Shown here: piece by piece, positions 5,047-42,353 of the stretch
How positions within the stretch are numbered: position 1 is the stretch's first letter
How the letters are laid out: each line of letters opens with the position of its first letter
Assembly: GCA_963710605.1 (NCBI GenBank)
Contig: CAVQBA010000005.1
Span: forward strand, 1 to 64,000
Length of the DNA stretch: 64,000 nucleotides
Direction: 5' to 3'
Source: an uncultured cyanobacterium
Lineage (GTDB): Bacteria; Cyanobacteriota; Cyanobacteriia; Cyanobacteriales; Cyanobacteriaceae
Notes under the pieces: model-generated
What the model was told of the DNA's origin: nothing
Databases searched by the model: none
What the model saw: only the letters and a program-made list of their open reading frames with translations
Program-made: the position numbers and the translations under genes

Positions 5047-5138
5047 GTATTTGTGCAAAGTGATTTATGTAGTAGGTTGAGAAAAATTTTCTTTCCCTAC
5101 TATTAAGTATCTAAAACTATTTAACAAATTGTTTTGTT

Positions 5139-6131: not shown

Positions 6132-6420
6132 TTTAAAACAGCCTCCGAACAGTTAAAGTTATCAGTGAATGATGTCAATTGATCAATGAATATAAGATCT
6201 AATTAGTGAAAATACACGACATCAAGGTGAGAATATATTAGATGATACGCCATGGATAAATTACGAATTAACAGCATCCAGAAATTATTTAGCCAACGCA
6301 ATCCATTTTTTACTATCATATCATTTTCAATTAAAGCGATCGTTCACCAATAGAGAATTTGATTTTTCCGTTATCCATCAACCATTTTGTACTTTTTAAT
6401 ACAATTTGCTTTAAGATTAG

Positions 6421-6448
6421 TGCAAAAGATTATCAATAGTGTTACAAT
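6421..6448 (+). promoter_or_regulatory. Candidate Fur box and extended -10 upstream of the iron-binding protein gene
   Basis: TGCAAAAGATTATCA resembles TGATAATnATTATCA; followed by TGTTACAAT; the downstream gene is a Fe3+ binding protein. Confidence 0.45.
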
Positions 6449-6488
6449 ACTTTCTCAGTAATCAAATATTTTAGGAGCGAAATTGATC

Positions 6489-7586: not shown

Positions 7587-7669
7587 TTAATAATTAATAA
7601 CAGAGTGTTTTTTCTGTAGGGGTGTAAGGCTTACACCCTAATGTATTTGTTATTGTTATATCTTCTAAC

Positions 7670-9187
7670 TTAAGAATGTCTTAGAAATAATTTATAAGCA
7701 TGATTATCACTTTCATCCCAATATAGATAACCAAGGCTATCTAAAAAAGTTTGCCATTGTTCCATTTCGTCAGGTGGTACTTGAATTCCGACAACAATAC
7801 GTCCATAATCTGAACCATTATTACGATAATGAAAAACGCTAATATTCCAATCTGGACTCATAGAATTAACAAATTTCATTAAAGCACCAGGGCGTTCGGG
7901 AAATTCAAAACGATAAAATAATTCATGGTTGGCTAAATGCGATCGACCTCCCACCATATGACGTAGATGTACTTTAGTTAATTCATCATCTGTTAAATCA
8001 ATAGTTTTGAAACCACAGTTTTCCCACTGTTGTGCTATTTTAATCGCATCACCTCGATCGCTAATTTGTACCCCAATAAAAATATGAGCTTGAGAGTCAT
8101 CAGCAATACGATAACTAAATTAGGTGAGATTACGTTTACCCAAACATTCACAAAAACGTCTTAAACTCCCTGCTTCTTCAGGAATTGTTACCGCAAAAAT
8201 TGCTTCTCTACCTTCTCCTAATTCTGCTCTTTCAGCCACAAAACGCAAACGATCGAAATTCATATTCGCACCACAAGCCACCGCTACTAAAGTTTCATCT
8301 TTTATTTGCTCCCTTTTTATATAAGCCTTCGCACCAGCGATCGCTAAAGCCCCAGCAGGTTCTAAAATCGATCGTGTATCCTCAAACACATCCTTAATTG
8401 CCGCACAAGTATCATCGGTACTAACTAAAATAATCTCATCAACATATTCTTGGCACAAACGAAAAGTTTCTTCTCCTACTTGTTTAACCGCTACACCATC
8501 AGCAAATAAACCCACTTGCGATAAAGTAACTCTATGCCCTGCCTGAAGAGACTGAGACATCGCATCCGAATCTACAGGCTCAACCCCAATAATCTTAATT
8601 TCTGGTCTTAATCTCTTGATATAAGCTGAGATACCAGCAATTAAACCACCACCACCAATAGCGACAAAAATAGCATGAATCGGTTGTTGATATTGACGCA
8701 TAATCTCCATACCGATCGTACCTTGCCCTGCGATAACATAAGGGTCGTCAAAAGGATGAATAAATGTCAAGCCTTTTTCCTTTTCTAGTTGACGGGCATA
8801 AATACAAGCATCATCATAACTATCACCGTACAAAACAACTTGACCACCTCTAGCTATTACCGCATCAATTTTTACTTGTGGCGTGGTGACGGGCATAACG
8901 ATAATCGCTTGAGTACCCAACATTTTAGCACCAAGAGCAACTCCTTGGGCATGATTACCCGCTGAGGCGGCTATGACTCCTTTTTTTAACAAATCAGGAG
9001 AAAGTTGAGCCATTTTGTTGTACGCTCCTCTCAATTTAAAAGAGAATACAGATTGCATATCTTCTCTTTTTAAAAGTAATTTATTATTTAGTCTGGCAGA
9101 TAAGTTAGGAGCGACTTCTAATGGTGTTTCTTGAGCTACATCGTAAACACGGGCGGTAAGAATTTGTACTAAGTAGTCGCAAAGCAT
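7670..9187 (-). pseudogene. ilvA: Biosynthetic threonine dehydratase with an in-frame stop at 8120-8122
   Basis: KREDMQSVFSFKLRGA, SAGNHAQG; reads GKRNLT-TAA-FSYRIADDSQAHIF and continues in frame into ORF 7670-7957 (FPERPGAL, FHYRN). Confidence 0.88.
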
Positions 9188-9488
9188 TAAGTTTAGAGAT
9201 TTTTTGTTGAGGGTTTTACCTTTTATAAAAATACCAAGAAATCACCCCTATTTTTTAACTTCGTGATCGAAATAGTGGATTCGTAGTGAATATTTGCAGA
9301 TCGATCGTTATCAATGTTGTTTAAGTCGATATAGCGTTCCTTATCTTTGTAAGGTACAGTTTAGATTTACAAGTCCCCTAGAAACAAAAGCGAAGCATCC
9401 TTAAATTTCCCCCTTACGAAGGGGGCAAGGGGGATGGGGATTTAGGGGGATTGAGAATGTACGTCATAATACTAATATAATTAACTAA

Positions 9489-10097
9489 TTAACAATTATC
9501 GTTTCTGATGCTTCCATCGGGCATAATAGTATTACAAAAAATAAGGTCTATCATTCCGACTCCAGAATAGTCGTCGATCTTAGCTCCTCTGAGGCAACAA
9601 TTGGTCAAATTAGCTTTAGAAAAAATAGTAGCACTACTACTAAGACGAGTCAGGTTAGCTCCAGTCAGATTAACTTGAAACATAGAGGCACTATTGATAC
9701 CAACCCTAGACAAATCAGCACCGCTAAAATCAGTACCATCAAAAGCTCCAGCACACATTTTAGCTCTTTTAAAATTAGCCCTTCGAAAAATAGCATTGGT
9801 CATACAAGCATAATCCAAAGTAGTATTCCTAAAATCCGCATCAGTTCCAATAACATTGTCCATTTTGGCTTTCAGCATAAAAGCAAACCGCAAATTTCCA
9901 TTGGTAAAATTAGTACCCCGCAAATTAGCACACATCAAACGGGCTTTGGACAAGTCAGCTCCAGTGAGGTTACTACCACTCAAATTGATCCGTTTCAAGT
10001 CAGCTTCCCGCAAATCAATTCCACTCAAATCCAGTCCCGAAAAGTCTCTTTCCCCAGTATTGTATCTTCTGAGTAATTCTTCAGCAGTCATGTCCAT
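9489..10097 (-). CDS. Pentapeptide repeat protein
   Basis: Repeated A(D/N)LXX units; N-terminal ELLRRYNTGERDF and C-terminal NTIMPDG. Confidence 0.9.
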   Translation of the reverse strand: MDMTAEELLRRYNTGERDFSGLDLSGIDLREADLKRINLSGSNLTGADLSKARLMCANLRGTNFTNGNLRFAFMLKAKMDNVIGTDADFRNTTLDYACMTNAIFRRANFKRAKMCAGAFDGTDFSGADLSRVGINSASMFQVNLTGANLTRLSSSATIFSKANLTNCCLRGAKIDDYSGVGMIDLIFCNTIMPDGSIRNDNC

Positions 10098-10449: not shown

Positions 10450-11327
10450 TTATATTTCTTCCCAACCACTCACACCAGAAGACATCATGTAACTAGTTAC
10501 ACTCGCTTCAAAAAAGTTAGCTTTGGTATTACCTTCTTTTTTGGTGTCAGAAAATTTTTCTAGATGAGTATAAGGACTTTTCGCATAAATAGCGTCTTTG
10601 TATAAAGGCTCTAAACCGATCGCTCTTAAACGAATATTCGCCATATATTTGGTATAACGTTCTGTACTAGAAGAGGTAATCCCTAATATATTGTTACCGA
10701 CAATGTGGTCAGTCCAACGACATTCGTGTTCTACGGCGGTGGCAAACATTTCATAAATACGATCGATCGAGTAATCAAAAGTTTTCATCGCTTCAGGAAT
10801 CAATTTTTGATACAAACGGACGTGAGATAATTCATCACGATTGATCATTTTGAAAATATCAGCCGAACCTGGCATGAGCATTCTAGCGGCAAGATTATAG
10901 AAGAAAATAAACCCGTTATAAAAGTAAATTCCCTCTAAAAGATAGTCACCCATTAAAGCCGTGAAATAGTTTTCTTGAGTAGGTTCGTCGATATACTTTT
11001 GATACATACTCGCAATATACTCACAACGCTCTTTTAAAACCTCATCAGTACGCCAAAATTCATAAACTTTGTCACGTCGATCGCTTGGTATAATTGTTTC
11101 GATCATGTATTGATAAGCGTGGTTGTGCATTCCCTCTTGAGAAATCTGTTCTGCCATACACAAGCTAATTTCTGGAGCAGTGATTGAACTTTTAAGATGA
11201 GGAATATTACATGTTTGTACCGAGTCTAAAAAAGTTAGGTATGATAAAATACCTTCAAATGCTCGACGTTCAGCAGTGGTTAAATTCCAATAATCGGTTA
11301 CATCTTGAGTTATGTCTAGTTTTTGCG
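10450..11327 (-). CDS. nrdB: Class I ribonucleotide reductase beta subunit, exon 2
   Basis: (P)QKLDITQD, LTFLDSVQ, QEGMHNHAY, LEGIYFYNGF, RDELSH, NFFE; in frame with exon 1 after intron removal. Confidence 0.92.
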
Positions 11328-16215: not shown

Positions 16216-17361
16216 ATGAAAATAGCTTATATCACAAAACACAATCCCCATGAAGTGCATTCTTGGTCTGGAACTAACTACAATATGTTTAATTCTTTAG
16301 TTAAGCAGGGTTTAGATGTTACCCATGTGGGAAAATCTTTATGGCATTGGAGCAAACGATTACCTCAACCTCTACGAAAACTTACGAGTTTGTTCTCTCC
16401 AAAAAATCAAAATAATCAAGATCAAGATTTGATTGAATTATCTCGTTATTCAGCAAAACTAATCGAAACAGAATTAAAAACAAAACCTTACGACATTATA
16501 TTTACTCCCGTTTCTTCAAAAGAATGTGCATTGCTAAATATTGACTTACCAATCGTCTATCTATCTGATGCGACTTCTCGCCTTTTAAAAAACTATTATC
16601 CAAATAGAACTTCACAACCAGAAAAAGTCGCAAAACAAAGAGATTTTTTAGAAAGTCAAATAATAGAAAAAGCAAATGCTTTAATTTATTCATCTAAATG
16701 GGCGGCTGATTCAGCTGTTACCGATTATCATGTATCTAAAAATAAAGTTAACGTAATTCCTTTTGGTGCAAATATTCAAAAAATCGATGATTTGGATGAT
16801 ATTCTTAAATATCGCCGACTAGACACAGAAATTAAATTATTGTTTATAGGTAGTGATTGGATACGTAAAGGTGGTGAAATCGCCTTCAACACAGTCAAAC
16901 AATTGAATGAAATGGGTATTAAAGCTCGTTTAATAGTTTGTGGTGCAACCCCACCAGAAAAGTGTCAAACAGAGTATGTTACTGTTAAGGGATATTTGAG
17001 GAAGAATCAGTCAAAAGAATTTGAAGAGTTAATCAGTTTGTTTCGTTCTTGTCATTTTATGTTTGTGCCTTCTAGAGCTGATTGTACTCCGATTGTTTTT
17101 TGTGAAGCTAGTGCTTATGGCTTACCTGTTATTTCTACACAAACTGGTGGTATTTCTAGCGTTGTTTTTGAAGCAGAAAATGGCTATTTACTACCACTTG
17201 AAGCTAAAGCAGAAAAATACGCTAATTTAATCGCTACAATTTTTCAAGACCAAGAAAAATATATGGAATTGGTATTATCATCAAGAAAAGTTTACGAAGA
17301 ACGTTTGAATTGGAAGCAATGGGCAAAAAAAGTTAGTTCTGTTTTAGAATCCTTAGTTTAA
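16216..17361 (+). CDS. GT4-family glycosyltransferase
   Basis: RKGG, PSRADCTPIVFCEASAYGLPVISTQTGGI. Confidence 0.88.
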   Translation: MKIAYITKHNPHEVHSWSGTNYNMFNSLVKQGLDVTHVGKSLWHWSKRLPQPLRKLTSLFSPKNQNNQDQDLIELSRYSAKLIETELKTKPYDIIFTPVSSKECALLNIDLPIVYLSDATSRLLKNYYPNRTSQPEKVAKQRDFLESQIIEKANALIYSSKWAADSAVTDYHVSKNKVNVIPFGANIQKIDDLDDILKYRRLDTEIKLLFIGSDWIRKGGEIAFNTVKQLNEMGIKARLIVCGATPPEKCQTEYVTVKGYLRKNQSKEFEELISLFRSCHFMFVPSRADCTPIVFCEASAYGLPVISTQTGGISSVVFEAENGYLLPLEAKAEKYANLIATIFQDQEKYMELVLSSRKVYEERLNWKQWAKKVSSVLESLV

Positions 17362-17544
17362 AATCAAAAATCAAAATTATCAAATTATCGAAACAGGTAA
17401 TTCTTTATCAGCAAAAATATTTTTAAGTTAATAAAATAAAAAAAATAGCGATTAGAAAAAATGCAAGAATTAAAAAGCAAATTCTTTCAATACCTTAAAA
17501 GCTTAGAGTAATCTAAGATTTTTTTTAATCAAGCCTGAGGTAAT

Positions 17545-19991
17545 ATTAAACTAAGCATAGGAGTCGCCTCCTACACTCGTCTTCAAAACCGTGCTTGAAA
17601 GTTTCCCTTCACACGGCTTTTCTGATAATAAACTCCTTTTCATGGATACGAGTCTTTTTAAACTTCCATCTCTGGTAGTCTTGATGTCATGGCAATGTCT
17701 ATGAAGTACTTGTAGATTATTGTATAAGTCCTTTCCTCCTTTGGACTTAGGAATTTTGTGGTCTATTTCTAGTAAGTCTCCATCTTTAAAATTATGTTCA
17801 CAATGATTACATTTTCCTTTTTGGTTCTTGAGTAATGTTGCCATTCTTGTTGAAACTTCAGGATGTTTGCCAATTCTAGCCGTCCAGTAAATCCAATCTC
17901 CGTCATAAGGTGATTTTTCTCCTCTGACTTTAGAATGTCGTTTGATTTTGGTCTCTGAATGGCTCATTGATTTTGTGCCATTATAATTTTCATCTCTGGT
18001 TGAGAACACCCAATTTTTTAATCCGTATGTGTGCCAATAATTCTTGACTACCCATGTTTTAGATTTTATTGGGATGTCTCCTTTCACTCCATCTTTTGAG
18101 TTGTTGATAGACTATATGGTCACATTTGGAGTAAGTCTCCTTGCTACACTTTGTTCTGTAATAGTTTGCCCAACCTCTGATAATAGGATTGAGTTCTCTA
18201 ATTAGAGCTGTCTGTGGTGATGATTTGTGTTTCCTAATAGTATCCCCAATCTTCTTGATATGGAGTTTGATTTTGTCCTTTGATGGTTTTATGATAGTTT
18301 TAAATCCAAGTAGCACACTATGAGTTGATTTCCCTGTGTGTGTTTTTCCAACTTCATATTGTGGGATATCAAATCCTAAGAAGTCAAAACCTGTGCTTCC
18401 TTCATACCTATTTAGTGTATGAGAGATACGGGTTTTACTTGGTTTTAATTCTAGACCGATGTCTTTTAACCAGTTTTCCATAATACTTTTACATTGGTGG
18501 ATAACCTCTAAGTCTTTATGAAGAATCACAAAGTCATCGGCGTATCTGATGAGAGAGATGCTTCTCTCGTTATTTCTCTTGAGTACCCTTTCCATGTTCT
18601 GGCAAATTTTTTGATTTCCAATTCCATACCGTGAAGGGCTATATTAGCTAATAATGGGGAAATTACACCTCCCTGTGGTGTGCCTTCTTTGGTAGGAGAG
18701 AATTTTTGCTCGTCCATGACTCCTCTTTTTAACCATGATTTAATCTCACGTTTTAGCTGAGGATAGGTTTCAAGTTTTCCAAGTAATTTCTCATGGCTTA
18801 TTTTGTCAAAGCACTTAGCAATATCCGCATCTAACACAAACTTCGGTTGATACCTGATTGCATTAAATATCGCTTCTATTGCATCATGACACGACCTTCC
18901 TGGTCTGAATCCGTAACTATTTGGCTCGAATTTGGATTCCCATTGTGGTTCAAGTGCTAATTTGATTAACCCTTGTTTGACTCTGTCTTCCATACAGGGT
19001 ATTCCCAGTGGTCTTTTTTCTCTGTTAGGTTTTGGTATCCATACTCTGCGAGTCGGTTTGGATTTACCAGTTAGCTTCAGTTGACCTACTAATTCAAGGC
19101 GTTGCTTTGGGGTTAGAGATTTAATTCCATCCACACCAGCTGTTTTCTTTCCTTGATTATCCTGTGTAACCTTTCTAGTTGCTAAGAGTTTTCCATAATA
19201 GGATTTGATAAGTAATCGTTGTAAATTGTGAACCAATTTTGTATTGCCGTTTTGACTCGCTCGATATATTCTTTTTTGTAATCGGAACGTCTCTGTCTCA
19301 ACTTTTTTCCAGTTGATAGCATTCCAGCTTCCGAATCCAACTCCTTTACGGTATTGTGTTCCTATTCCTTCTGAGATATTCACTTTATCAATCAGCGTTG
19401 CTGTTGTCATAATTTTCGTACAAAAGTTGACTATATCTTGTTTATCACAGTGTCCACGTCTGCATATCCATTACGTTACATAATGGCTTTAGCTTTTTGG
19501 ACAATCTTACACTCCATAACCTTACGCTGGTTACTGCTCATTGATTACTCTTTGAGAGGTTATGAGGGTTTTCCCGTTCCTTACTTCCTTTTATCTGACT
19601 TTAGACTCCTTCTATCCACCGCCCTATATATTTGACTCCAGTTCAGTCACACAAAACTGCTGGTACATTAGAGATTACCTTTTGGTCTAGCCTATCAGCC
19701 TTTTGGCTAGTTAATCATAACGATGGTTCAGACGAAGATTTGTATTCCTAGTCGTGGTCAGTGTGCTAGATGGGATTCCAGTTTTAGGCTACCAGTTACC
19801 ACCATTTAATCGAGCTTCAATGTATGGTTTACCAACACCAAGTCATTATCGATTATGCTGTCACACGGTCAATCGTGGGTAGGATTTACACCTACAAGGA
19901 AAGTAAAGTTGTCAAGGTACATTGAATGTAAACCTTGCCTAGCTTCCGTTTTGGCTATTTAGCCTAGACTTTTGCTAGAACAAGATTGCAC
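17545..19991 (-). mobile_element. Group II intron inserted antisense to the host gene
   Basis: 5' GTGCAATCTTG at 19991; domain V AAGCCGTGTGAAGGGAAACTTTCAAGCACGGTTTT; 3' end GTTTAAT; removal joins GGT AAT|TAT GGA GAT. Confidence 0.9.
17551..19410 (-). pseudogene. ltrA: Intron-encoded RT/maturase/HNH broken by two frameshifts (~18580, ~18065)
   Basis: Three consecutive ORFs: RT0-4; YADD plus domain X; HNH (CNHC, IDHKIP..GG..NL..HRHCH). Confidence 0.9.
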
Positions 19992-20168
19992 TATGGAGAT
20001 GATTTGATAACTCTGGGAGCAAGATATGTTTTTGAGCGATTAAATTTTAATTTGACACAGACATTAGAAACAGCCGAATATGTTTTACTTAACGGTGGAG
20101 GAAGATTTAATAGTTTTTGGTCTGATGGTAATATTGATATTAGACGCTATCGCGAAAAAATCCCGATT

Positions 20169-20331
20169 TATAGTTATTTCAATTTAGACTGAGACATTAA
20201 TATTGAGAGAAAAAACTTAAGTATTAAACCCGCCTTGCAATTTCCTTGACAAGGCTAACAGAATCCGTTTAATAAATTAAACTAATATTTAATTCGTTAA
20301 AATTGTCTCATTGTTATTTTAAATTACTATA
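20169..20331. mobile_element. MITE-like element with TATAG..CTATA inverted ends at a TA target
   Basis: Imperfect terminal inverted repeats TATAGTTATTTCAATTTAGACTGAGACA / TGTCTCATTGTTATTTTAAATTACTATA; related copies near 34743-34853 (reverse) and 54925-55032. Confidence 0.75.
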
Positions 20332-22607
20332 CCCATTATCATGGGCCTACAAACTTATAAGTTTACCGAAGCGATCGAATCTGAATTTAGAGAAGTGTGT
20401 CAAATCAGTTCAGCACCTATTATTCTTTTTGCTCGTGAGAATATTAGCTACCAAAAATTATGTGAGATGAAATTACCGAGTAATGTAGAAATTCACCATA
20501 GTCAGGATCTCGCTTTTGAATTGGAAGGAAATTCATTTATTGAACAAGCTAAACAAAATAGCACAGATGAATATGTGTTACTTTGTTTGAGACTCGACAG
20601 AGAATCAAGTTCTTTTTTAATTAAGCAATTTTTTGAATGGCAACAAATGGTAAAGAAAAAAGAGAATTTTAATTTTGTCAAACGTGTGTTATCCAAAACT
20701 CAACGAGTTGCTCGCCCTTTAATTTGGCGTTCTACCTGTAATAACATACTAAGTAAATATGATCTGGAAGATTTACCTTATATTCATAAAGACGTTTCCT
20801 CTGAAGCTCAAAATTTTGAAGACTTTTGTCATCAAATAGAAAAAGCAGCATTTATTATGACTGAACGTGCAATTCGATTTGAGCTAAAAGCGTTACAGAG
20901 TGCACTCTGTAACGCGTGGGTTCAGCAAAAAAAGAGATCCTAAGCGCTCATCTCTTGTAACTATTTTGTTGTTTCCTAAAGGAGGAAAATTCGGGGTTAA
21001 TCAGGAAAATTCACTAGGTAAAAACCTATTGAAATACCTGCGAGAATTACGGCATTACCCTTAGCACTTAGATTATTAGATTAGTTATCAAAATGTTAAA
21101 GCAGGGTAAAAAGGGAACTGAGAGGAAATTTCAACCTCAATAGTAAACGCAAGCCAATCAACTACGACTAGCGAAAGCAAACTTCTGTCATGAACTCTCA
21201 AAACGTCAAAGTGGTGAAAAGAAATTGATACACCACGTCCAAAAGGGATAAGGAAAAAAAGTAGGGATATATTCGGGTTACCTACACCGACCTCTAAAAT
21301 TATCTTGGGAGACAGGAAGAGTCTAAGGCGGATGTACCCAACAGAATGGAACGAATTAACCCCAAACTGGTTCTAAAGGATGAAAACATCATTTAGTAGT
21401 CACAAACTTAAGGCATACACCTAGAGTGGGAATGAGATGAGGTAAAAGCCAACGCCTTACTGTAATGGTAATGGATATGCCCACGTACCCGGCAAATTTA
21501 AATAATGGAGTTTTGAGTAGTAATGAATACAGCAAAAACGAGTTTCAAGACTACGTACGCATGGAACACTATACGTGAGCGAAGGTCGAGCAATTGTACC
21601 TTTCAAGTTGCAAAAGAAAATCCATCAAGCGGTCAAATCGGGACAAAATGCGAAAGCTCGTAATCTCCAAAAGCTATTACAAAAGTCATATTTTTCAAAG
21701 CTCTTAGCGGTACGTAAGGTGTCCCAAGACAACTCAGGGAAGAAAACTGCTGGTGTTGATGGTGTTAAATCATTGACTCCTAATCAGAGGTACAAACTGG
21801 TTGATAAAATTGGTGAACATCACAAATCAAAACCGCTACGTAGGGTGCGGATACCTAAAGCTAATCGTAATGAAAAGCGTCCATTAGGAATTCCAACAAT
21901 GCGTGATAGAGCGAAACAAGCCTTGGTGAAATTAGTCTTAGAACCTTACTGGGAGGGCGATTCGTTGAAGTAAGGAGCGTCTAGAAACTAGACAGGTATG
22001 TACTTCTAGGGGATGGTGGAGAGAAAACCACAAGTACCCTAAACTGTTTGTTTGATGAGGGTGAAAGTCCCTCCCATAAAGAGAAATGTGACTCCTTACC
22101 TGCCCACAGTGACCTGACTCGGAATTTAGGAGGCTGAAGCTGGGAACTAGGACGCAATCAGAGACTAAACAGATAAGTCGCACTGGCGTTAATAGGGAGA
22201 CGACACGAGTAAACAGGTTCTATAAAAGTGTCTTAATGGTTGTCTATCCATCTGAAAACAAAAGGATAAGAACAAATCTTCTCACTCTCACCACGTGTTC
22301 CCAGGACAGTGGTATTCTCTGAGAGGAAGATAGGCAAATTGAACCACTCTAAACCGTCAAAATAATCGAACAAACGGAACGAAAAAAAACAATGAACTTG
22401 GTCTTAAGGGTCGAAACTTAAGTAGGCTAGACGAGCAGTACAACTCCAAGCATTGGGTAGGATGAGGCGTAATTGCCAAAAGGATATCAAACAATGTTCA
22501 ATTAAGTAATCTAGGAATTATGACGCAGTTAAAAAAAAACTAGCGATGATTGGCAACAAATCGAGTGGCGTAAATTACGACAAGATTTGTCAGACTACAG
22601 AAGCGAA

Positions 22608-24976
22608 GTGCGACCTGAACTGATTGACTAAATTGAGGTGTTAAACCTCTCTAGGATTTCTACCCTAGACTCACATAGAGTAATCCGTTATCAAACGGTA
22701 CGTCACATTAAGAGTAAGTAATGAAATTAATGGAGTGCAGACGCTAGAAGTAACCATAGCTGGAAGGAACTATCTGGTGAGGTGCAAGTGGGACAAGTAA
22801 AAGGAAGAACGAAAGTGAAGTTATGATTAAACTGCGTTATTGTAGAATAGGTCAAATTGTTCCTGATAGACCTAAACCAAAAAGGTAAGTGGGCGACATT
22901 TGAGGTTTCGTTTCTCAAATGTGTAGAAACAAAATTCCCACCGCAGAAAAGTAACCTTCCTAATTACTTAATAAACTTTAGTCGATACAACAGGGTAAGC
23001 CCTACAAGGTCTAAAAGGGAAATAAATAAACCAATTAGTAAGCTGATGAGTAATCGAAGCCGAATTCTTTGGAGGGTATAGGATGAGCGAAAAAGCGAAT
23101 GTCAATTTGTAATGAATTGAATAGAGGTTCAAAATTTGCCTCGGACCGAAAGGAAAGCAGAATTCGTTTAGGTCACATATGAAATTGAAAACTTTAGAAG
23201 GATTGGACTCAATGAAAAGTTGGATACATCAACCTGATGTAAATGGACAACGAGAACAATTGACTGATTGGAATCAAATTAATTGGAAGAAAGTCAGGAA
23301 AATTGTTAAATCACTACAGAGAAGAATATTTCGTGCAAGAAAGCTAGAGCAGTGGAAAAATCTACGAAGATTACAGAAGCTGTTAAATAAATCGTATGCC
23401 AACGTATTGCTAAGTGTTAGACAAGTTACACAATTGAATCATGGTAGAAATACTGCAGGGATTGACGAACAAGTAGTTTTAAATCCAGCTGAAAGAGTGA
23501 AGTTTGTCGATAACTGGCAAGAAGAAAAATCGAAACCCACGAAAAGAGTGTACATTCCCAAGTCAAATGGCAAAAGACGACCCCTTGGAATACCGACTGT
23601 AAAAGATAGAGTTGAACAGGCAATAGCTAAGAATTCACTCGAACCTGAATGGGAGGTAATATTCGAGCCTAATTCATATGGGTTCAGAAAAGGAAGAAGT
23701 TGTCAAGATGCAATAGAACAATGTTTCCTTAACTTGAAACAGGGAAGGCATAAGTGGATATTAGATGCGGATATTGAGGGCTTCTTTGATAACGTCAGAC
23801 ATGAAACAGTATTAGAACTAATTGGTTCTCATCCATCGAGAAATAAAATCGAAGGGTGGTTGAAAGCAGGATACACCGAAAATGGAAAACATTATGAGAC
23901 AACCAGAGGAACACCTCAGGGTGGAATCATAAGCCCATTATTAGCAAATATAGGACTACATGGATTAGAAAACCTAATCAGAAAAGTCAAACTGCCAAAA
24001 GACAAATGGGGAAATAGACCTAAATTAGGGTTCTGTCGTTACGCGGATGATTTTATAATCACTGCGGAAAATAAACAAAGGCTCTTGCAGATACAAATAC
24101 TGGTAAATGGTTGGTTAAAAGAAAGAGGCTTGAAATTAAGCACGGAAAAAACACGGATAATCCACATAAATGAAGGGTTTGACTTTCTAGGTTTTAATCT
24201 TCGTCATTATGACGGAAAATTGTTGATTAAACCGCAGAAAGAAAAAGTACTACAATTCTGTAAAGAATTAGGTAAAACTATAAAAACTTGTGCCTCGTGG
24301 AAACAGGAAAATCTAATCGCTAAAATCAACCCTATGTTAAGAGGGTTCGGTAACTATTATAAAGGAGTGGTTAGCAAACGAGTTTATAGCTATATAGATA
24401 GTAGGACATTCAGATATCTTTTAAGGTGGGCGAAACGTAGGCATCCGATGAAGTCTATGACATGGATAAAGAATAGATATTTTCCAAGAAAAGAAAAACA
24501 GGAATGGAACTTTGCGTGTCAGTACGAAGGTAGAAAAGGTAAAAATATAGAGAAAGTTCTGTATGATATCTCGAAAACAAAAATAGTACGTCATGTAAAA
24601 GTAAAAGGGTCTAATTCACCTTTTGACCCAGAACTGTCGGAATATTGGGAGAAACGTCGATGCAAAGAGAATAAACAAATATGGGCAAAGGGTTCATTAT
24701 ATGAAACACTAGCCAAGAATCAAAATTATAAATGCTCTTTGTGCGGTGAATTTATTATCAATGGAGAAGAGACGGAAGTTCATCATATAGTACCTGTGAG
24801 TGAAGAGGGCTTGAATCATATAAGCAACCTAGAACACTTACACAGGAGTTGTCATAAGCAGGTACATGGACGAACTAGTAATCGAGCTTGAAGTGTGGCT
24901 TGAGCCACATGAGCTGAGAGGCTCACGTGTGGTTCTTAGAGGGGTGAGGACTGGTAACAGTTTAATCCTACTCGAC
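22608..24976 (+). mobile_element. Group II intron C nested in the RT gene of intron B (innermost, apparently intact)
   Basis: 5' GTGCGACCTG; domain V GAGCCACATGAGCTGAGAGGCTCACGTGTGGTTC; 3' ACTCGAC; loop TTCGTT (22907-22912) pairs with exon AGCGAA. Confidence 0.93.
23179..24891 (+). CDS. ltrA: Intact intron C RT/maturase/HNH endonuclease
   Basis: RPLGIPTVKDR, GTPQGGIISPLLANI, RYADD, CSLC, HHIVP..NLEHLHRSCH. Confidence 0.93.
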   Translation: MKLKTLEGLDSMKSWIHQPDVNGQREQLTDWNQINWKKVRKIVKSLQRRIFRARKLEQWKNLRRLQKLLNKSYANVLLSVRQVTQLNHGRNTAGIDEQVVLNPAERVKFVDNWQEEKSKPTKRVYIPKSNGKRRPLGIPTVKDRVEQAIAKNSLEPEWEVIFEPNSYGFRKGRSCQDAIEQCFLNLKQGRHKWILDADIEGFFDNVRHETVLELIGSHPSRNKIEGWLKAGYTENGKHYETTRGTPQGGIISPLLANIGLHGLENLIRKVKLPKDKWGNRPKLGFCRYADDFIITAENKQRLLQIQILVNGWLKERGLKLSTEKTRIIHINEGFDFLGFNLRHYDGKLLIKPQKEKVLQFCKELGKTIKTCASWKQENLIAKINPMLRGFGNYYKGVVSKRVYSYIDSRTFRYLLRWAKRRHPMKSMTWIKNRYFPRKEKQEWNFACQYEGRKGKNIEKVLYDISKTKIVRHVKVKGSNSPFDPELSEYWEKRRCKENKQIWAKGSLYETLAKNQNYKCSLCGEFIINGEETEVHHIVPVSEEGLNHISNLEHLHRSCHKQVHGRTSNRA

Positions 24977-26621
24977 TTTATAAAGCGGTTCAAGTTGAAG
25001 ACATGGCGAAAGCTAAACGGCTACAAAGACTAGTCATGAACTCCTTTGGTGCAAGAATGTTAGCAATCCGACAGGTTACTCAACTAAATAAGGGCAAGAA
25101 AACAGCGGGTGTCGATGGTAAAACAGCGTTAAGCTTTGAGGAAAGATTCAACCTTGAAAAAGACCTTAAAAGCAATGCCAAACACTGGAAACATCAGGAA
25201 TTAAGAGAAGTAATTATTCCCAAAAAGAATGGTAAAACTCGTACATTGAAAATTCCTACCATCGCTGAGAGAGCATGGCAATGTTTAATTAAATTCGCAC
25301 TTGAACCAGCTCATGAAGCAACTTTCCATGAAAGAAGCTACGGTTTCAGAACTGGCAGAAGCACTCACGACGCTCAAAAGTATATATATACGAACTTGCA
25401 GAGCAATCACGGCGGTATCCAGAAGCGAGTACTCGAATTAGACATAGAAAAATGTTTTGATAGAATAAATCATGAATCAATACTTACAAGGGTAATATCA
25501 CCCACCTTCATAGTCAACGGATTACGGAGGTGTCTAAAAACAGGTATAAACCCAAAATTCCCCGAACAAGGAACGCCACAAGGAGGAGTGGTCAGTCCGC
25601 TATTAGCAAATATAGCACTAAATGGAATAGAAACCATAGGGCAAAGTGTAAGGTACGCCGATGATATGGTATTCTTCTTGAAACCAAAAGATGATGAGAA
25701 TCTGTTGTTGGAAAAAGTTAGCACATTTCTTGCAGAAAGAGGAATGAATGTCAGTAAAAGTAAGACGAAAGTGACAGCCTCGATAGATGGATTTGACTTC
25801 TTAGGATGGAGATTCTTCGTTCAAAGTAACAACGGAAAGTTTAGAAGTACTCCCTCAGAGGAGAATTTTAAGGCATTCCGAGATAAAGTGAAATTCATCG
25901 TCAATAACTCGAATTATGGAGCACAAATCAAAGCCGAAAAACTCGCATCAGTAGTAAGAGGATGGCGGAACTACCACAAATACTGTAAATTAGACGGCTC
26001 TAAGTTCGACTTATGGGCAACAAAATACAGAACTTTTAAAGTGTTCCTAAAACAAAAAACTATTAACAGGTATCAAGCCTTAAAACTAGTAAAAAAAGCA
26101 TTTCCTGAAATTGGATACAGCGAGAATAAATTTGTAAATGTCAAAGGTAAAAAATCACCATATGATGGAGACCTAACTTACTGGTCAAAAAGAAACAGTG
26201 CCTTATATGACAACGCAACTGCTAAAGCTTTGAAGAAACAAAACCATTCATGCGTCCGATGTGGATTAAAACTCATATCAGATGAAACTATACATTTACA
26301 CCATGTAGATGGAAATCATTCCAACTGGAAAACTAAAAACTTAGAGGCAATTCACCAAAGTTGCCACCAATTGGAACACATGAGCAAAAGCTGTAAAAGC
26401 TAAGATATTCGGGAGCTGTATGCCACGAAAATGGCACGTACAAATCTAACTGAGAGGGTCGGGGCATAATAGCCTCACTCGACTCAACCAGCAAAATTTG
26501 AAGGAACTAGTTATGGTTTTAGACCAGCTCATTCTGCACACGATGCTATCGAAAAGATATTCTCCTCTATCAAACAAAAGCCCAAATGGGTGTTGGATGC
26601 CGATATTGCAAAATGTTTTGA

Positions 26622-28219
26622 GTGCGATTCGTTCAGTCGAAACCTAGAGATAGGGGGATGACTGGCAAGACTACTAAGTAACCCTTGGGTTGAGTTCGCA
26701 CTTTAATCCTTAGTAGTTTAAACCTTGACAACTTCATAGTCTTATAGGTGAGTATGAGTACCCTAGAAAATACAAGTCCTATCTTTCAGACGCAGAAATG
26801 AAAACAATTTCCTTACGGTAGCGACTAGCCATCAATCCGTAAAGCAGGAAATAAAGCGGAAACAACGACTATTAGCCTAAAATGGTCAACCGTAAGTAAG
26901 TCTGTATGGATAACAAAAGTGAAGTCACTGTCAGATTTATCGTGAATTTTAGGTAGTGAAAAGGCTGATACACTACTTGAACCAAAATGGTCATAAGAAA
27001 AGGGTGAGATAAGAAATCGAATCTATATCTCAAGCATTACCCTAAAACTCGGTAAAGAGGTGACATCCTAACCAGACAAAACAAAGACAATGAGGAACGA
27101 AGTAACCACTTTATTACTCTCCTATTCTTGGTCAAAGGACAGCGTAGCACTCAGCTAAGACGTAAAATATGTAGCAATACAGGTAGTAGAGTGTGAAGAT
27201 TGGGTTAAAAGCCAAAGCCTACTGTAATAGGTAGGATATGCAGACGAACCCACGATGATATGGAATAAATAGCTGTAATTCAAGAGTACATACATTATGA
27301 CCACTGATTCAAAACAGAAGGATAAATTAAATAACTGGCGTGACATCAAATAGAAAGATGTAGAACGTCAGGTATGGAAGCTCCAAACACGGATATTTAA
27401 AGCATCTCGTTGTGGTGATGTCGTAAAGGTACATAAACTCCAAAGATTGTTGTTAAGTTCAAACAATGCGAAATTACTTGCCGTTAGAAAAGTGACTCAA
27501 GATAATTCAGGTAAAAAGACAGCAGGAGTGGATGGGGTTAAATCACTGTCCCCAGTAGCACGTCTGAGACTTGTAAAACAACTCAAATTGGGTTTGAAAG
27601 CGAGACCAACCCGTAGAGTATGGATACCCAAACCAAACGGGGAAAAAAGACCGCTCGGAATACCAATCATGAGAGATAGAGCATTACAGGCATTAGTTAA
27701 ACTAGCATTAGAACCCGAATGGGAGGCACTCTTTGAACCAAATAGTTATGGATTCAGAATTGGTCGCTCGTGTCACGATGCCATTGAAGCTATCTATTGT
27801 GCCATCAATAAGAAGTCAAAATATGTCTTAGATGCTGACATTACAAAGTATTTTGAACGTATCAATCATAAAAAATTATTGGAAAAGGTTAACACCTATC
27901 CAACAATGAGAAGACAATTAAAACAATGGCTTTGTAGTGGCGTAATGGACGGTAAGAATTTATTTTCAACAACTGAAAGAACACCGCAAGGCGGATTTAT
28001 TTCACCCCTTTTAGCAAACATAGCGTTACACGGATTAGAAGACTTAATCATGAATCTTGCTCCTAAATTCAATATGAAGGATAAAAGAGGAAGACAATTA
28101 GGTAAAAGAGATAAGTTAAAATCTATCTCACTAATTCGATATGCTGATGACTTTGTTTGTCTTCATGAGGATAAAGAAGTAATTAATTCGGTAAAAAAGG
28201 AAATAGAAATATGGTTAAA
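26622..28219 (+). mobile_element. Group II intron D (5' part) in the RT gene of intron A; RT ORF from 27297 has a TAG at 27351 and is cut off by the IS
   Basis: 5' GTGCGATTCG directly after DADIAKCF-GA; loop TCGAAT (27017-27022) pairs 5/6 with exon TTTTGA; RT0 to YADD present. Confidence 0.88.
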
Positions 28220-29379
28220 AGACATCTCCAAAATATAATATTATCAAAAAATTAGTATAATAACTTTGACTTATAAAGTAAAAAATATGAAAGATAATGA
28301 ATAATTATACTTGTAACTATATTCAAAAACATCCTCAAGAAACAAAAAGACTATTAGGTATTAATTATCAACAGTTACAAGACTTAATAAAATATCTGAA
28401 ATTACTAGAAAAACAAGAAAGAAAAAAACAAGAACAAAAGAAAATTAGGATCAATAAAGCTGGAGGTGGAAGGGATGAAAAAATAAGCGAAGAAGAACAA
28501 ATAATAATGACTTTAATTTATCTAAGACATCATCTTAATTTTCAATTATTAGGATTAATGTTTCAAGTAAGTGAAAGTACCGCCAATAATATTTTTCACA
28601 AATGGCAAAAATTATTAGAATTAGCTTTACCGTTTTCATTGTTAGAACAAGTAAAAAAGTGCGAAGAAAGCCTCGAAAAAATTCAAGAAATATTAACTGA
28701 TTATGAACTAATTGTAGATACCTCAGAGCAAGAAATAGAGAGGAGTATAGACTATGAACAACAAAAAAAGTATTATTCAGGTAAGAAAAAGATGCATACT
28801 GTAAAAAATCAGATAATTTGTCTGTCCAAAAGCAGAAGATATAGTTGATTTGGTTTCAGGAGAACGAGGATCAAAAGCCGATTTAACAATTTTTTGGCGA
28901 GAAAATATTGATAAGTTTGAGCTCAACCAGAAGTTTAGTGGGGATAAAGCTTATGTAGGCGAACGACAAATGAAAAACTCCGAAAAAGAAACCAAAAAAT
29001 CGAGAATTAACATCACAAGAAATGGAGAAAAACAAAAATATATCTTCTGAGAGAATATTTGTCGAGCATCTAATTAGAATAATCAAAATATTCAAGGTAA
29101 CAGGAGAAAAATTTAGGTTGAAAAAAGAAGAATATCAATCAGTTTTTTTAAGCGTTTGTGGATTAGTAAGATTAAGAATGGGAACTCTAATAATTAAACA
29201 TCCGAAAACGAGTGAAATTGAAAAAATAAATGATGTTAAGTTAAGCCATATTTTTTCATTAAAATTAAATTTTCTTTGATTTTTAACGAAGTAATAAGGG
29301 TTAAACAAAGCGATCGCTACGAGCGTAAAATAGTTGTAAATGCTTATAATGAAAGGTTTACAAATTTTTGGAGATGTCT
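28220..29379 (+). mobile_element. IS5-family-like insertion sequence remnant with frameshifted transposase (28297-29279)
   Basis: 14-bp inverted repeats AGACATCTCCAAAA / TTTTGGAGATGTCT; HTH (LGLMFQVSESTA), IVDTSEQ, YYSGKKKMHT, GDKAYVG and RIFVEH spread over three ORFs. Confidence 0.85.
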
Positions 29380-29413
29380 AATAATGTAGTAATGACAATA
29401 CCCATGTTATTGA

Positions 29414-29713
29414 GGAGTGGTATCACCCTTACTAGCTAATATAGCCCTTCACGGTATGGAAAACGAAATCAAAAAGTACGCCAGAACATTAAAAGGAAAT
29501 AAATCAAAAAATGAATCGTCTCTGAGTTTAATCAGATATGCTGACGATTTTGTTATCCTACATCCAAAAAAAGAAGTAATTTTTGAATGTAAACAAATAA
29601 TAGAAAGATGGCTTCAAGACAAGAAACTAATTAGAGAGGAGCGAGGTGAGGGGAAACTTTCATGCCTCGTTTTGAAGACGAGTCAGAATGGTGACGTTCT
29701 GGCTTAGTTTAAC
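29414..29713 (+). mobile_element. Remnant of a fifth group II intron E (RT4-5 fragment fused to domains V-VI)
   Basis: SPLLANIALHG..IRYADD differs from the intron D copy; domain V GAGCGAGGTGAGGGGAAACTTTCATGCCTCGTTTT; 3' end GTTTAAC. Confidence 0.75.
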
Positions 29714-30380
29714 CGTAACGTTTTGAATGGGAGTTTAGGATGGTGACATCCTATTAGGCCTCCCCTAATGTCTTCATGTCAGGCATTTTAGGCTATTTAC
29801 TGGTCAACCAGTAGTTTTAGTTCCCAATCCTCAATTATTGCCAAAGTTCGTGCAATATACGAATATAGCATGAAAGATAAAGACAATATAAATCTACATG
29901 AAATATAAATAGGATTTTGCCGATGATGTATTTGTAGATAAAATATCAGTCAACAGATTACGATAAAATAAGTACTTGTACAAAATTATTTGTAGATTTT
30001 ATTATAGAGGTATCCATGTTTGCACCCTCTATCTAGTAAAATCACATCGATATAAAAAATTTATGATGATATATAATTAATTTTATTTACCTACTTATGA
30101 GGCAAATTTTGATGATAGTTTTTGCTCATAGTTGGAAATGAGTCGATAATTTAGACATCTAGTAAAATCATTTTTAGTGTTTTGATTATTTTTCATTGTA
30201 TGATGATAATTCTATCGAGTTTTTTATAACTTGTGTCAATACAAAGTACTAGTAAGAGAATTAATCATAGTTAATCGCTAATAACGAAATATCTTAATAG
30301 CTTAAATGGTATATTAGTAATTAGTAATTGTTATAGTTTTTATTTTTAAGTCACCCTCCACCGACAATGAATTTATAATC

Positions 30381-31265
30381 ATGACGACTAAATTACAAAA
30401 AGCGATCGCAAACAAAGAATTTGTGATTACCGCTGAAGTCACACCACCAAAAGGGGGAAACCCTCAAAGGATGTTAGAAGTGGCTCAGTTACTTAAAGAT
30501 AGAGTTCATGGTATCAATATTACCGATGGTAGCAGAGCCGTGTTAAGAATGTCTTCTATTGCCGCTTGTGCCTTACTTAAACAAAATGATATTGAACCAA
30601 TTTGTCAGGTGACAGGTAGAGATAGAAATTCGATCGCATTACAAGGAGATTTAATGGGGGCTTATAGCCTCGGTATTCGTAATATTTTAGCCTTAACAGG
30701 TGATCCGATCAAAGCAGGTGATCATCATCAAGCTAAGGGGGTTTTTGAACTAGAATCTGTTCGTTTATTACAACTAATGAACAAATTAAACTCAGGTTTT
30801 GATTTGAATGATAAACCTTTATGTGATGGTCATTTGGACTTGTTTACAGGGGCGGCAGTCGATCCACAATCAAAAAGTTGGTCTGGTTTACAACGTCGAT
30901 TCGATCGTAAATTAATGGCAGGAGCAAAGTTTTTTCAAAGTCAATTAATTAGTGATTTTGATAAATTAGATCGATTTATGAATCAAATTGCTGTTGGTTG
31001 CGATCGACCTATTCTAGCAGGTATATTCTTATTAAAAAGTGCTAAAAATGCTCGTTTTTTAAATGCTAAAGTACCCGGTGTTCAAATACCAGAACATATA
31101 ATTTTGAGATTAGAAAAAGCTAATAATCCTTTAGAAGAAGGTATTAATATCGCCGCAGAGCAAGTGAAAATGGCTCAAGATATTTGTCAGGGAGTACATT
31201 TAATGGCTGTTAAAAAAGAAGAATTAATTCCGCAAATTTTAGATCAAGCTAATTTAAAACAATAG
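30381..31265 (+). CDS. metF: Methylenetetrahydrofolate reductase
   Basis: TAEVTPPKG, GRDRN, LALTGDP, GAKFFQSQ. Confidence 0.9.
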   Translation: MTTKLQKAIANKEFVITAEVTPPKGGNPQRMLEVAQLLKDRVHGINITDGSRAVLRMSSIAACALLKQNDIEPICQVTGRDRNSIALQGDLMGAYSLGIRNILALTGDPIKAGDHHQAKGVFELESVRLLQLMNKLNSGFDLNDKPLCDGHLDLFTGAAVDPQSKSWSGLQRRFDRKLMAGAKFFQSQLISDFDKLDRFMNQIAVGCDRPILAGIFLLKSAKNARFLNAKVPGVQIPEHIILRLEKANNPLEEGINIAAEQVKMAQDICQGVHLMAVKKEELIPQILDQANLKQ

Positions 31266-31804
31266 ATATTAAATAATATTTACTATTTGTTTTTGAACTA
31301 TTTTCTTATTTTTTATGTTTGTAAATCACGAGGATTTTATCGACTAATTTATCGATTATTAAACTAAGTTTATGGACAAAAGTTCAATTGTTTGGCGTAA
31401 ATTGATATTGCTGAGTTGTCTTGCCATTTTTCTTGAGTTTGTTGGCTAATCATTTGTCTCAACCTAAAAAGCTTTTAATCGCTTACTTAAGGCTTTTAAC
31501 ATTTTACCTGTTTTAATAGCAACAAAAGACTGACTGTAATGTAAATGTTGCTTCTACAAAACTAACCTTTACCCTTTGCTCTTTGCACGAGTGCCCTTTG
31601 TTGACCAACTGTATATGAAAACAAAACTCGATCGTAATTAAAAAATAGTAAAATATAAAAATAAATATTATGTATAATTACTGATAAATCTGTTGTTAAT
31701 TGTTAATTCTCAATTGATTAGTTGACCTTTGACTGATAAGATAGCAAACAATAGTAAAAATTACTAATATAAGTAAAATTTGGTTTCACATATAGAGGAA
31801 AATT

Positions 31805-41002: not shown

Positions 41003-42353
41003 TACAGGCGGTCGTGACCTACCATCTACCGGTTTTGCTTGGTGGTCTGGTAATGCTAGACTTATCAACTTATCTGGTAAATTGTTGGGTGCTCACGTCG
41101 CTCACGCAGGTTTAATTGTCTTCTGGGCAGGAGCAATGACCTTATTTGAAACAGCCCACTTCATCCCTGAAAAACCCATGTACGAACAAGGGTTGATTCT
41201 TTTACCTCACATTGCAACCTTAGGTTGGGGTGTAGGTGCAGGTGGTGAAATAGTAGATACATTTCCTTTCTTCGTCGCTGGTGTACTTCACTTAATTTCT
41301 TCGGCGGTTTTAGGATTCGGTGGACTTTATCACGCTTTGCGTGGCCCTGATACTTTAGAATCTGATTTCTTTGGTTACGATTGGAAAGACAAAGACCAAA
41401 TGACCAACATTATTGGTTATCACCTAATTCTTTTAGGTTGTGGTGCTTTATTACTCGTATTCAAAGCGATGTTCTTTGGTGGTGTCTATGATACATGGGC
41501 TCCTGGTGGTGGAGATGTCAGACTCATTACCAACCCAACTTTAAACCCTTCAGTTATCTTTGGTTATTTACTTAAAGCACCATTTGGTGGAGAAGGTTGG
41601 TTTCTTAGTGTTAATAACATGGAAGATATCATCGGCGGTCACATTTGGGTTGGCTTAATTTGTATCGCAGGTGGTGTGTACCACATTCTAACCAAGCCTT
41701 TTGGTTGGGTTCGTCGTGCATTCATTTGGTCTGGTGAAGCTTATCTTTCTTATAGTTTAGGTGCTTTATCCTTAATGGGATTCATCGCTTCTACTATGGT
41801 TTGGTACAACAACACCGCTTATCCTAGTGAATTCTTTGGCCCTACAGGTGCAGAAGCATCTCAAGCACAAGCATTAACTTATTTAATCCGTGACCAACGC
41901 TTAGGTGCTAATGTAGGTTCTGCACAAGGTCCTACAGGTTTGGGTAAATACTTAATGCGTTCTCCTACCGGTGAAATCATCTTTGGTGGAGAAACCATGC
42001 GTTTTTGGGATTTCCGTGGTCCTTGGTTAGAGCCTTTACGTGGACCTAACGGTTTAGACTTAGACAAAGTAAGAAACGATATTCAACCTTGGCAAGTACG
42101 TCGTGCGGCTGAATACATGACTCACGCTCCTTTAGGTTCATTGAACTCTGTAGGTGGCGTTATTACTGACGTAAACTCCTTTAACTATGTATCTCCTCGT
42201 GCATGGTTAGCAACTTCTCACTTCGTATTAGGCTTCTTCTTCTTAATCGGTCATTTATGGCATGCAGGAAGAGCTCGTGCGGCAGCGGGTGGTTTTGAAA
42301 AAGGTATTGAGCGTGAAACAGAGCCAGTATTAGCAATGCCAGATTTAGACTAA
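40986..42353 (+). CDS. psbC: Photosystem II CP43 protein (GTG start overlapping psbD)
   Basis: [25 protein letters not shown]; typical GTG GTA ACG start. Confidence 0.98.

Follow-up and report, generated by a model that had tools for sequence, protein, structure and literature searches.

The first 64,000 nucleotides (hereafter the window) of a 332 kb contig from an uncultured cyanobacterium (CAVQBA010000005.1; assembly GCA_963710605.1, 3.93 Mb in 7 contigs, 85% complete) were analysed. Between 17462 and 29908 the window holds a pseudogene for a polysaccharide pyruvyl-transferase, and this pseudogene is interrupted by a nest of group II introns. Intron A (20867-29769) holds intron B (21955-26489), which in turn holds intron C (22608-24976), so that the nest is three levels deep; A also holds intron D (from 26622) and a remnant, E (to 29713). 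Positions are those of the window and a solidus within a sequence marks an insertion point. The features are collected in Table 1.

Anatomy of the intron nest

Domains V and VI were searched for with the Rfam model Intron_gpII (RF00029), which describes these two domains and has a cutoff of 40 bits. On the + strand of the nest, matches end at 24976 (59.5 bits), 26488 (39.9 bits) and 29713 (50.6 bits). The genome as a whole contains 12 such matches, 11 of them above the cutoff, together with numerous copies of the reverse transcriptase (RT) gene. A wider Rfam search of 19000-31500 at E <= 10 returned the domain V-VI type and chance matches only, with no family for domains I-IV, and the 5' boundaries therefore rest on the GUGYG start, on homology and on pairing between exon-binding sites (EBS) of the introns and intron-binding sites (IBS) of the exons.

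Group II RT domains were found in all five members using Pfam, with a complete protein in C alone. The RTs are 42-62% identical in the N-terminal region that they share, and the members are consequently not copies of one element. C and D start with GTGCG, in agreement with GUGYG, and A (GTGCA) and B (GGGCG) are each one base off. The 5' ends of A (GTGCAATTCG at 20867), B (GGGCGATTCG at 21955) and D are of the IIB2 type, for which the consensus is GUGCGAUUC (Pfreundt & Hess, PMC4649490), and that of C (GUGCGACCUG) differs. The nest introns are chloroplast-like IIB introns that encode reverse transcriptase/maturase/endonuclease proteins.

The 5' part of A was aligned from its first base with an intact intron on contig C6 that encodes a 569-aa RT (the C6 intron), giving 75.5% nucleotide identity over 887 nt, and Pfam recognized an RT fragment of A at 21575-21973. 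The similarity of the end of A to the tail of the same intron was measured over the last 50 nt (29720-29769), after which host homology resumes at about 29770-29772. Removal of B by joining 21954 to 26490 gives ...CCTTACTGGGA/AGCAAAATTTGAAGG, which aligns without a gap with ...CCATACTGGGAAGCACAGTTCGAGGG of the C6 intron across ...CTGGGA/AGCAAA.... A close relative of B was not found in its own genome. In a genome of the same family (G006) a B-like intron was located that shows 62-71% protein identity, starts with GTGCGATTCGTT (GTGCG) and ends with ...CTCTACC. Joining 22607 to 24977, which removes C, aligns without a gap at the junction with this G006 intron, where FRLQRKIYKAI is uninterrupted, and the blastn match of the G006 intron restarts exactly at 24977. 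The RT of the G006 intron (locus L033, G006:C1:76000-88000) is itself cut by an insert of ~1.3 kb at reverse-strand positions ~6075-7411, bounded by the inverted repeats GGTACTTAGACAAAA and TTTTGTCTAAGTACC.

For the outermost junction the best homologue of the host protein (P0002, 62% identical) was used, which reads ...KAAFIITERLHVGVLGYLLNKPVVLVPNP...IYEYSMK and, at the junction, ...FIITERLHV.... In the window, ...KAAFIMTE ends at 20866 and RLHV...QPVVLVPNP...IYEYSMK starts at 29770. As P0002 is uninterrupted at ITERLHV, the TE-R/LH junction is right. Uninterrupted homologues are thus in agreement with all three junctions (B in A, C in B and A in the host).

An earlier note on this DNA had described at least five group II introns at three levels, and the domain V-VI matches together with the RT domains in all five pieces bear this out. 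The coordinates that it gave, including those of D, 132 nt past B, and the end of E at 29713, all hold, the search with the domain V-VI model having returned the three + strand ends listed above, and its statement that the RT proteins are clearly different agrees with their measured identities. It had also noted that removal of the introns restores the host frame at TE-R/LH; the restoration is real, P0002 reading ITERLHV, but the host is a pseudogene and the restored frame therefore has no functional effect. The note did not mention an insertion sequence (IS; 28220-29379) or the deletions, nor that the host is a pseudogene and has a sixth, antisense intron.

It is highly improbable that the nest is an assembly artefact in which intron copies were collapsed or chimerically joined. 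The many domain V-VI matches and RT copies in the genome speak for such an error. Against it, the five RTs are diverged and C is unique in the genome, which leaves little to collapse; each junction coincides exactly with an intron end, and the interrupted element becomes colinear and in frame when joined across it; the EBS/IBS pairing described below fits the flanks; two other genomes have an insertion at the same codon; and the contig is long (332 kb) within an assembly of only seven.

Table 1. Intron pieces, host pieces and other elements between 17462 and 29908 of the window
Feature	Position	Strand	Remarks
Host piece 1, residues ~1-27	17462..17544	+	Two in-frame stops; tblastn, P0002 residues 4-27 at 17473-17544
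Intron F, sixth group II intron	17545..19991	-	Antisense to host; between GN and YGD codons
Host piece 2, residues ~28-85	19992..20165	+	tblastn, P0002 residues 27-85 at 19989-20165, 47% identity
163-bp dispersed repeat resembling a miniature inverted-repeat transposable element (MITE)	20166..20328		Between host residues 85 and 87
Host piece 3, residues 87-265	20329..20866	+	tblastn, P0002 63% over 180 aa; holds the open reading frame (ORF) of the earlier note
Intron A, 5' part	20867..21954	+	Domains I-III and RT N-terminus (RVT_N); frameshift near 21575
Intron B, 5' part	21955..22607	+	GGGCG start; EBS2 22215, EBS1 22299; RT N-terminus, two frameshifts
Intron C	22608..24976	+	Intact, 2369 nt; intron-encoded protein (IEP) 23179-24891; domains V-VI 24900-24976
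Intron B, 3' part	24977..26489	+	Rest of RT (466-aa ORF 25003-26403) and domains V-VI
Intron A, RT domain 2-3 piece	26490..26621	+	AKFEGTSYGFRP...DADIAKCF
Intron D, 5' part only	26622..28219	+	Starts GTGCGATTCG; RT through domain 7; cut off by IS
Insertion sequence, probably IS5-type	28220..29379	+	HTH_Tnp_4 and DDE_Tnp_4 in separate ORFs; 15-bp terminal inverted repeats
Outer intron (A), domain IV end/RT tail and first bases of domain V 5' strand	29380..29423	+	Similarity to A2 (outer intron of a second nest)
Intron E remnant	29412..29713	+	RT domains 5-7 fused to domains V-VI; RF00029 50.6 bits
Intron A, domain V 3' strand and domain VI, A end	29714..29769	+	84% identical to C6 intron tail
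Host piece 4, residues 266-311	29770..29908	+	Three reading frames; tblastn 29772-29834 and 29843-29905 differ in frame

Target pairing and intron C

Pairing with the 5' exon was identified for B and C. In B, EBS1 (TCCCAG) pairs with CTGGGA and EBS2 (AGGTTC) with GAACCT (6 + 6 bp), the two loops being 84 nt apart. In C, EBS1 (TTCGTTT, 22907-22913) occupies a 7-nt loop on a strong hairpin and pairs with AAGCGAA, the final seven bases of the exon; EBS2 (TTGTAG, 22840-22845) pairs with CTACAG, which directly adjoins IBS1 (7 + 6 bp). The target of C reads CTACAGAAGCGAA/TTTAT or, in longer form, CTACAGAAGCGAA/TTTATAAAG. These pairings and the precise boundaries support the serial colonization that had been proposed for the nest. 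By comparison with the C6 intron, the site of D was placed within the codon for Asp/Glu in KCF(D/E), the RT-3 motif of A.

C is the only intact member, as had been stated, with a full RT, canonical ends and domains V-VI, A, B, D and E being defective. Its IEP (570 aa) has RVT_N, RVT_1, GIIM and HNH domains, all above the Pfam cutoffs, and aligns over its whole length with the TeI4h RT of known structure (6ME0_C; E 3.8e-127); none of the decay defects noted in A, B and D is present. These features suggest that C could splice from any transcript of the region and could move. A close second copy of C was not found in the genome (best 66% nucleotide identity) and C is therefore undatable. That it is the youngest member is shown relative to B and A only. 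E is 94-97% identical to its own second copy (E2), and the arrival of E could be as recent as that of C or more so.

The closest relatives of C (63-69% protein identity) occur in other cyanobacteria. Seven of them were included in a scan for covariation at EBS1, and nine loci were examined for a second RT. At L035, L036, L038 and L040 the EBS1 loop changes in step with the 5' exon, with seven of seven pairs in each case (loop TAGCTTT with exon GGAGCTA, TCTGCTT with AAGTAGA and GAACTCT with AGAGTTC), and these are four of the five relatives that keep the hairpin of C. L034 keeps the loop of C, its exon reads CAATCAA and five of the seven pairs form. L041 and L043 have a different sequence at the loop position and no match with the exon was found.

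The introns at L034 and L037 occupy the same Ile codon of LQxxI/Y in the RT of another intron (LQQSI/YEAT and I/YRAAS, respectively), that at L042 lies in the KTAGVDG motif of another RT, and at L038 another RT ORF starts 19 nt beyond the end of the intron. The site is the same at L035 and L036; a second RT match is absent there and at L040, L041 and L043. Recurrence at the same target was observed in the C lineage (C, L034 and L037) and for both copies of the E lineage in this genome, and was shown for neither B nor D.

Decay of the nest and of its host gene

A HMMER search with the host ORF returned 65 homologues of about 300-320 aa, of which the ORF corresponds to residues ~91-265; it is an internal piece of the pseudogene. 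The top three homologues, which were the ones scanned, carry PF04230 (PS_pyruv_trans). The ORF at first seemed an orphan, as a word-index search found only the ORF itself and a search of 40 relatives gave no match, a view overturned by the HMMER result. With tblastn, residues 87-266 of P0002 map to 20329-20868 and residues 267-311 to 29772-29905 in more than one frame, the last host piece containing at least three frame changes. Host homology ends at 17544 and resumes at about 19989-19992, beyond intron F. F gives an RF00029 match of 57.6 bits at 17545-17621(-), has the 5' end GTGCAATCTTG on the minus strand, and its RT is split over three ORFs in three frames (17551-19410(-)); lying on the opposite strand, it is not spliceable from a host transcript. 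The MITE-like repeat has 154 blastn matches in the genome, with full-length copies 77-90% identical, and occurs at four places in the sister genome G001. With its stops, frameshifts, MITE and antisense intron, the host gene is dead. A glycosyltransferase gene (16216-17361) lies just upstream, which fits a polysaccharide locus.

Both frameshifts in the 5' part of B precede the site of C, one of them in a run of A's. The remaining ORF of B (25003-26403) is without the N-terminus and contains RVT_N (partial), RVT_1 and GIIM according to Pfam, and in domain V the lower helix has two mispairs, the score being 39.9 bits against the cutoff of 40. The RT of D, of which Pfam recognized a fragment at 27447-28238, contains an in-frame TAG between IK and KD, and the domains V-VI of D are gone.

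The IS that cuts off D has perfect inverted repeats and a broken transposase, and is unique in this genome. Its left flank is the RT of D up to domain 7 and its right flank about 30 nt of pre-domain-V sequence of the outer intron; as the two flanks are non-contiguous, an adjacent deletion is indicated. The 3' part of D and the middle of A may have been lost in a deletion next to the IS or by recombination of two IS copies. In G001 (67% complete) neither an empty site nor a copy of the nest was found, the matches being short IS-derived and MITE-like sequences only. Two elements of ~386 bp in that genome (L011, C66:6064-6449, and L012, C38:11678-12063) consist of the two ends of the nest IS, 72-79% identical, and are non-autonomous derivatives of it; one of the two inspected has TAA on both sides.

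E was compared with E2 (contig C2), to which it is 94% identical over 29412-29621 and 97% over 29613-29725 (nucleotides). Its RT fragment was located at 29417-29707 (Pfam), and domains I-IV are absent. Two deletions account for its present form. In the first, the microhomology GAGGAGTGGTAT joins the start of the outer domain V to RT domain 5 of E, with the loss of ~1266 nt, which also took the rest of the 5' half of the domain V of the outer intron; 29412-29423 is the microhomology common to the A piece and E. In the second, the microhomology TTCAAGACA joins RT domain 7 to pre-domain-V sequence, with the loss of 812 nt. The 3' flank of E (CGTAACGTTTTG...) aligns with the domain V 3' strand of the C6 intron and, further on (CGTAACGTTTTGAATGGGAG...), with this strand and domain VI.

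The domain V of a further intron, A2, is interrupted by E2 at this same point (...GAAAATGTCA/E2/TGCACCGTTTTGG). As E and E2 both lie in domain V, the catalytic hairpin of other introns is where the E type inserts, and that of A was destroyed: most of the domain V of A is gone through the insertion of E and the deletions, so that A cannot splice. The inner intron of the Euglena psbF twintron likewise lies in domain V. A2 and E2 form a second nest in the same genome (C2:3819-9649), in which E2 occupies 7219-9598 and its ORF stops at 450 aa. The RT of A2 is interrupted at ~5090-6212 by an element that encodes a transposase-like protein in two frames on the minus strand, and the exon flanks of A2 read ...TSQTC/PNC..., which we take to be a TnpB-type zinc-finger motif.

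A different topology, in which E invaded D rather than A, so that 29380-29423 and the tail 29714-29769 belong to D, was considered very unlikely. It would account for the similarity of 29380-29423 to its counterpart in A2, which is related to D, with 32 of 38 bases matching (~84%; manual count), and for the poor alignment of this stretch with the C6 relative of A. The tail, however, is close to the C6 intron and unlike that of A2. Moreover, the host exon RLHV resumes directly after 29769, which makes 29769 the 3' end of the intron in the host gene, that is, of A, and a nest with E in D would require a deletion, exact to the nucleotide, of what was left of the 3' part of A. A single compensatory pair, identified by eye, links 29380-29423 with the domain V 3' strand at 29714-29724.

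The nest might also be seen as a working multi-level twintron, from which C, then B, D and E, and finally A were spliced to give a functional host mRNA. All five introns are in the sense orientation to the host, their removal restores the frames, and sequential splicing of a twintron is documented in Trichodesmium (PMC4649490). Yet A is without most of domain V, D without domains V-VI and E without domains I-IV, the domain V of B has two mispairs and scores below the Rfam cutoff, and the host is broken by in-frame stops, by three or more changes of frame in its last piece, by a MITE and by the antisense intron F. Such a twintron is extremely improbable, and functional sequential splicing was rejected on the anatomy, with its incomplete ribozymes and the stops and frameshifts of the host.

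The nest is very probably a decayed pile-up of mobile group II introns, which were inserted successively into a dispensable pyruvyl-transferase gene and then into each other. The nesting itself dictates the sequence of events. By retrohoming, A would have entered the host gene at ITE/RLHV; B would have entered the RT motif EPYWE/AKFE of A, and D its RT motif KCF/(D/E); E would have entered the 3' strand of the catalytic domain V of A; and C would have entered the RT N-terminal motif LQKR/IYKA of B. The targets would be picked by base pairing of the intron loops EBS1 and EBS2 with the DNA upstream of the insertion point. As the targets lie where other introns are most conserved, each intron copy would give new landing sites. 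All members but C decayed later, as the RT genes of A, B and D acquired frameshifts and a stop, through mispairing in the domain V of B, through an IS insertion with an adjacent deletion that would have taken the 3' part of D and the middle of A, and through the two microhomology deletions in E, which also removed part of the domain V of A.

Several observations weigh against this pile-up as reconstructed here. The search for EBS1 and EBS2 in A gave no convincing candidate, the putative EBS1 loop mismatching the 5' exon, and A may lie at a non-cognate site or the wrong loop may have been picked; the same searches in D, E2 and the C6 intron also gave nothing convincing. The stretch 29380-29411 is closer to A2 than to the C6 relative of A, and its assignment to A rests on contiguity and the one compensatory pair. 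The flanks of the IS read AAA on the left and TAA on the right, so that there is no clean target duplication and the deletion mechanism can only be inferred. An E-type insertion in domain V was seen in two of two copies, both in this genome; of 14 ends of related introns that were sampled from other genomes of the order, none had a domain V flank. Finally, the anatomy and the junctions were read from the assembled contig.

Further introns were noted outside the nest. At 11328-~13750(-) in the window there is another, apparently intact group II intron with a 590-aa RT (RVT_N, RVT_1, GIIM and HNH) and domains V-VI of 51 bits, directly upstream of an ORF at 10450-11163(-) whose match to the ribonucleotide reductase small-chain profile is confined to positions 84-277; this intron probably interrupts a ribonucleotide reductase small-chain gene in the sense orientation. 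Two intron copies on C6, at 937362-937439(-) and 946374-946432(+), face in opposite directions ~9 kb apart and are identical in domain V and the upstream 60 nt; the second runs off the contig end and may mark an assembly break caused by the repeat. A domain V-VI match of 48.4 bits at C1:180292-180368(+), on a contig where no RT query matched, may be an ORF-less intron. The window also contains a full-length match to the IsrR antisense RNA (41382-41568(-), 186.7 bits), which implies isiA on the + strand and is a sign that the source is a cyanobacterium.

Comparison with other nested introns and significance

Arrays of up to five nested introns have been described in Methanosarcina acetivorans (Dai & Zimmerly, 2003, as summarized in Zimmerly & Semper, 2015, PMC4424553), where they have no coding flanks, reflect repeated homing into introns as well as deletions, and act as a perpetual homing site. 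The earlier note had called the nest unusual; it is deep and diverse, but its depth has this precedent, and four of the nine loci of C relatives examined have another RT gene beside or around the intron. The nest and the archaeal arrays are alike in having no effect on host expression and in offering a standing homing site, and the number of members equals the archaeal record. The nest, however, is found in a bacterium, a cyanobacterium, rather than in an archaeon, and its flanks are a recognizable PF04230 pseudogene rather than sequence without coding ORFs. Unlike the arrays, it comprises four or five diverged lineages, with RTs as dissimilar as given above, and one of its targets is the catalytic domain V and not an ORF. 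Its deletions occurred by microhomology and beside an IS, and are not shown to be homologous recombination between copies, in contrast to M. acetivorans.

In Thermosynechococcus elongatus two-level twintrons with TeI3 inside TeI4 have been reported, as well as introns with IS elements as their targets (Mohr, Ghanem & Lambowitz, 2010, PMC2882425). Both cases concern IIB introns of cyanobacteria, and the RT of C is closest to the solved TeI4h RT. The inner introns of T. elongatus are, as described there, ORF-less, mutually identical and placed between the first and the second ATG of the outer ORF, at two levels, whereas the nest has three levels, its inner introns each encode a diverged RT of their own, and the targets lie in RT motifs and domain V. 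The twintron of Tery_4732 in Trichodesmium erythraeum is functional and has two levels (Pfreundt & Hess, 2015, PMC4649490); the inner intron is located in domain I, and in vivo the two introns are spliced out to give a functional mRNA, whereas the nest is mostly dead and its host a pseudogene. The chloroplast twintrons of Euglena share with the nest an inner intron in a part of the outer intron essential for splicing (Copertino & Hallick, via PMC4649490 and PMC4424553), but are organellar, consist of degenerate ORF-less introns and are spliced functionally in sequence. A bacterial nest deeper than two levels was not found in the literature searched, which is no proof of absence. The nest is a clear bacterial case of a pattern already described in an archaeon.

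As such, it provides a fully resolved bacterial example of introns within introns at several levels, in which the boundaries are exact, the loops that pair with the target are identified and the course of decay can be read. C has a defined target of 13 nt and could readily be used in mobility assays. A caution follows for automated intron finders, which overlook the outer members of such nests; the pipeline of one study could not detect the outer introns of twintrons (PMC8919778).

Some intron lineages home into RT motifs and domain V, conserved portions of the introns that they invade, and introns can in this way build up in dispensable DNA without harm to the host. We give about an even chance to the further proposal that the C lineage is a specialized parasite of other group II introns, with the conserved LQ(K/R)RIY coding motif near the N-terminus of their RTs as its cognate site, and that the E lineage acts similarly on domain V. 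If this is true, several unrelated lineages in several genera would be involved, with the ribozyme core as one target, which may be compared with the proposal made for M. acetivorans. Such lineages, together with dead host genes, would form self-renewing landing pads on which introns persist without cost to the cell.

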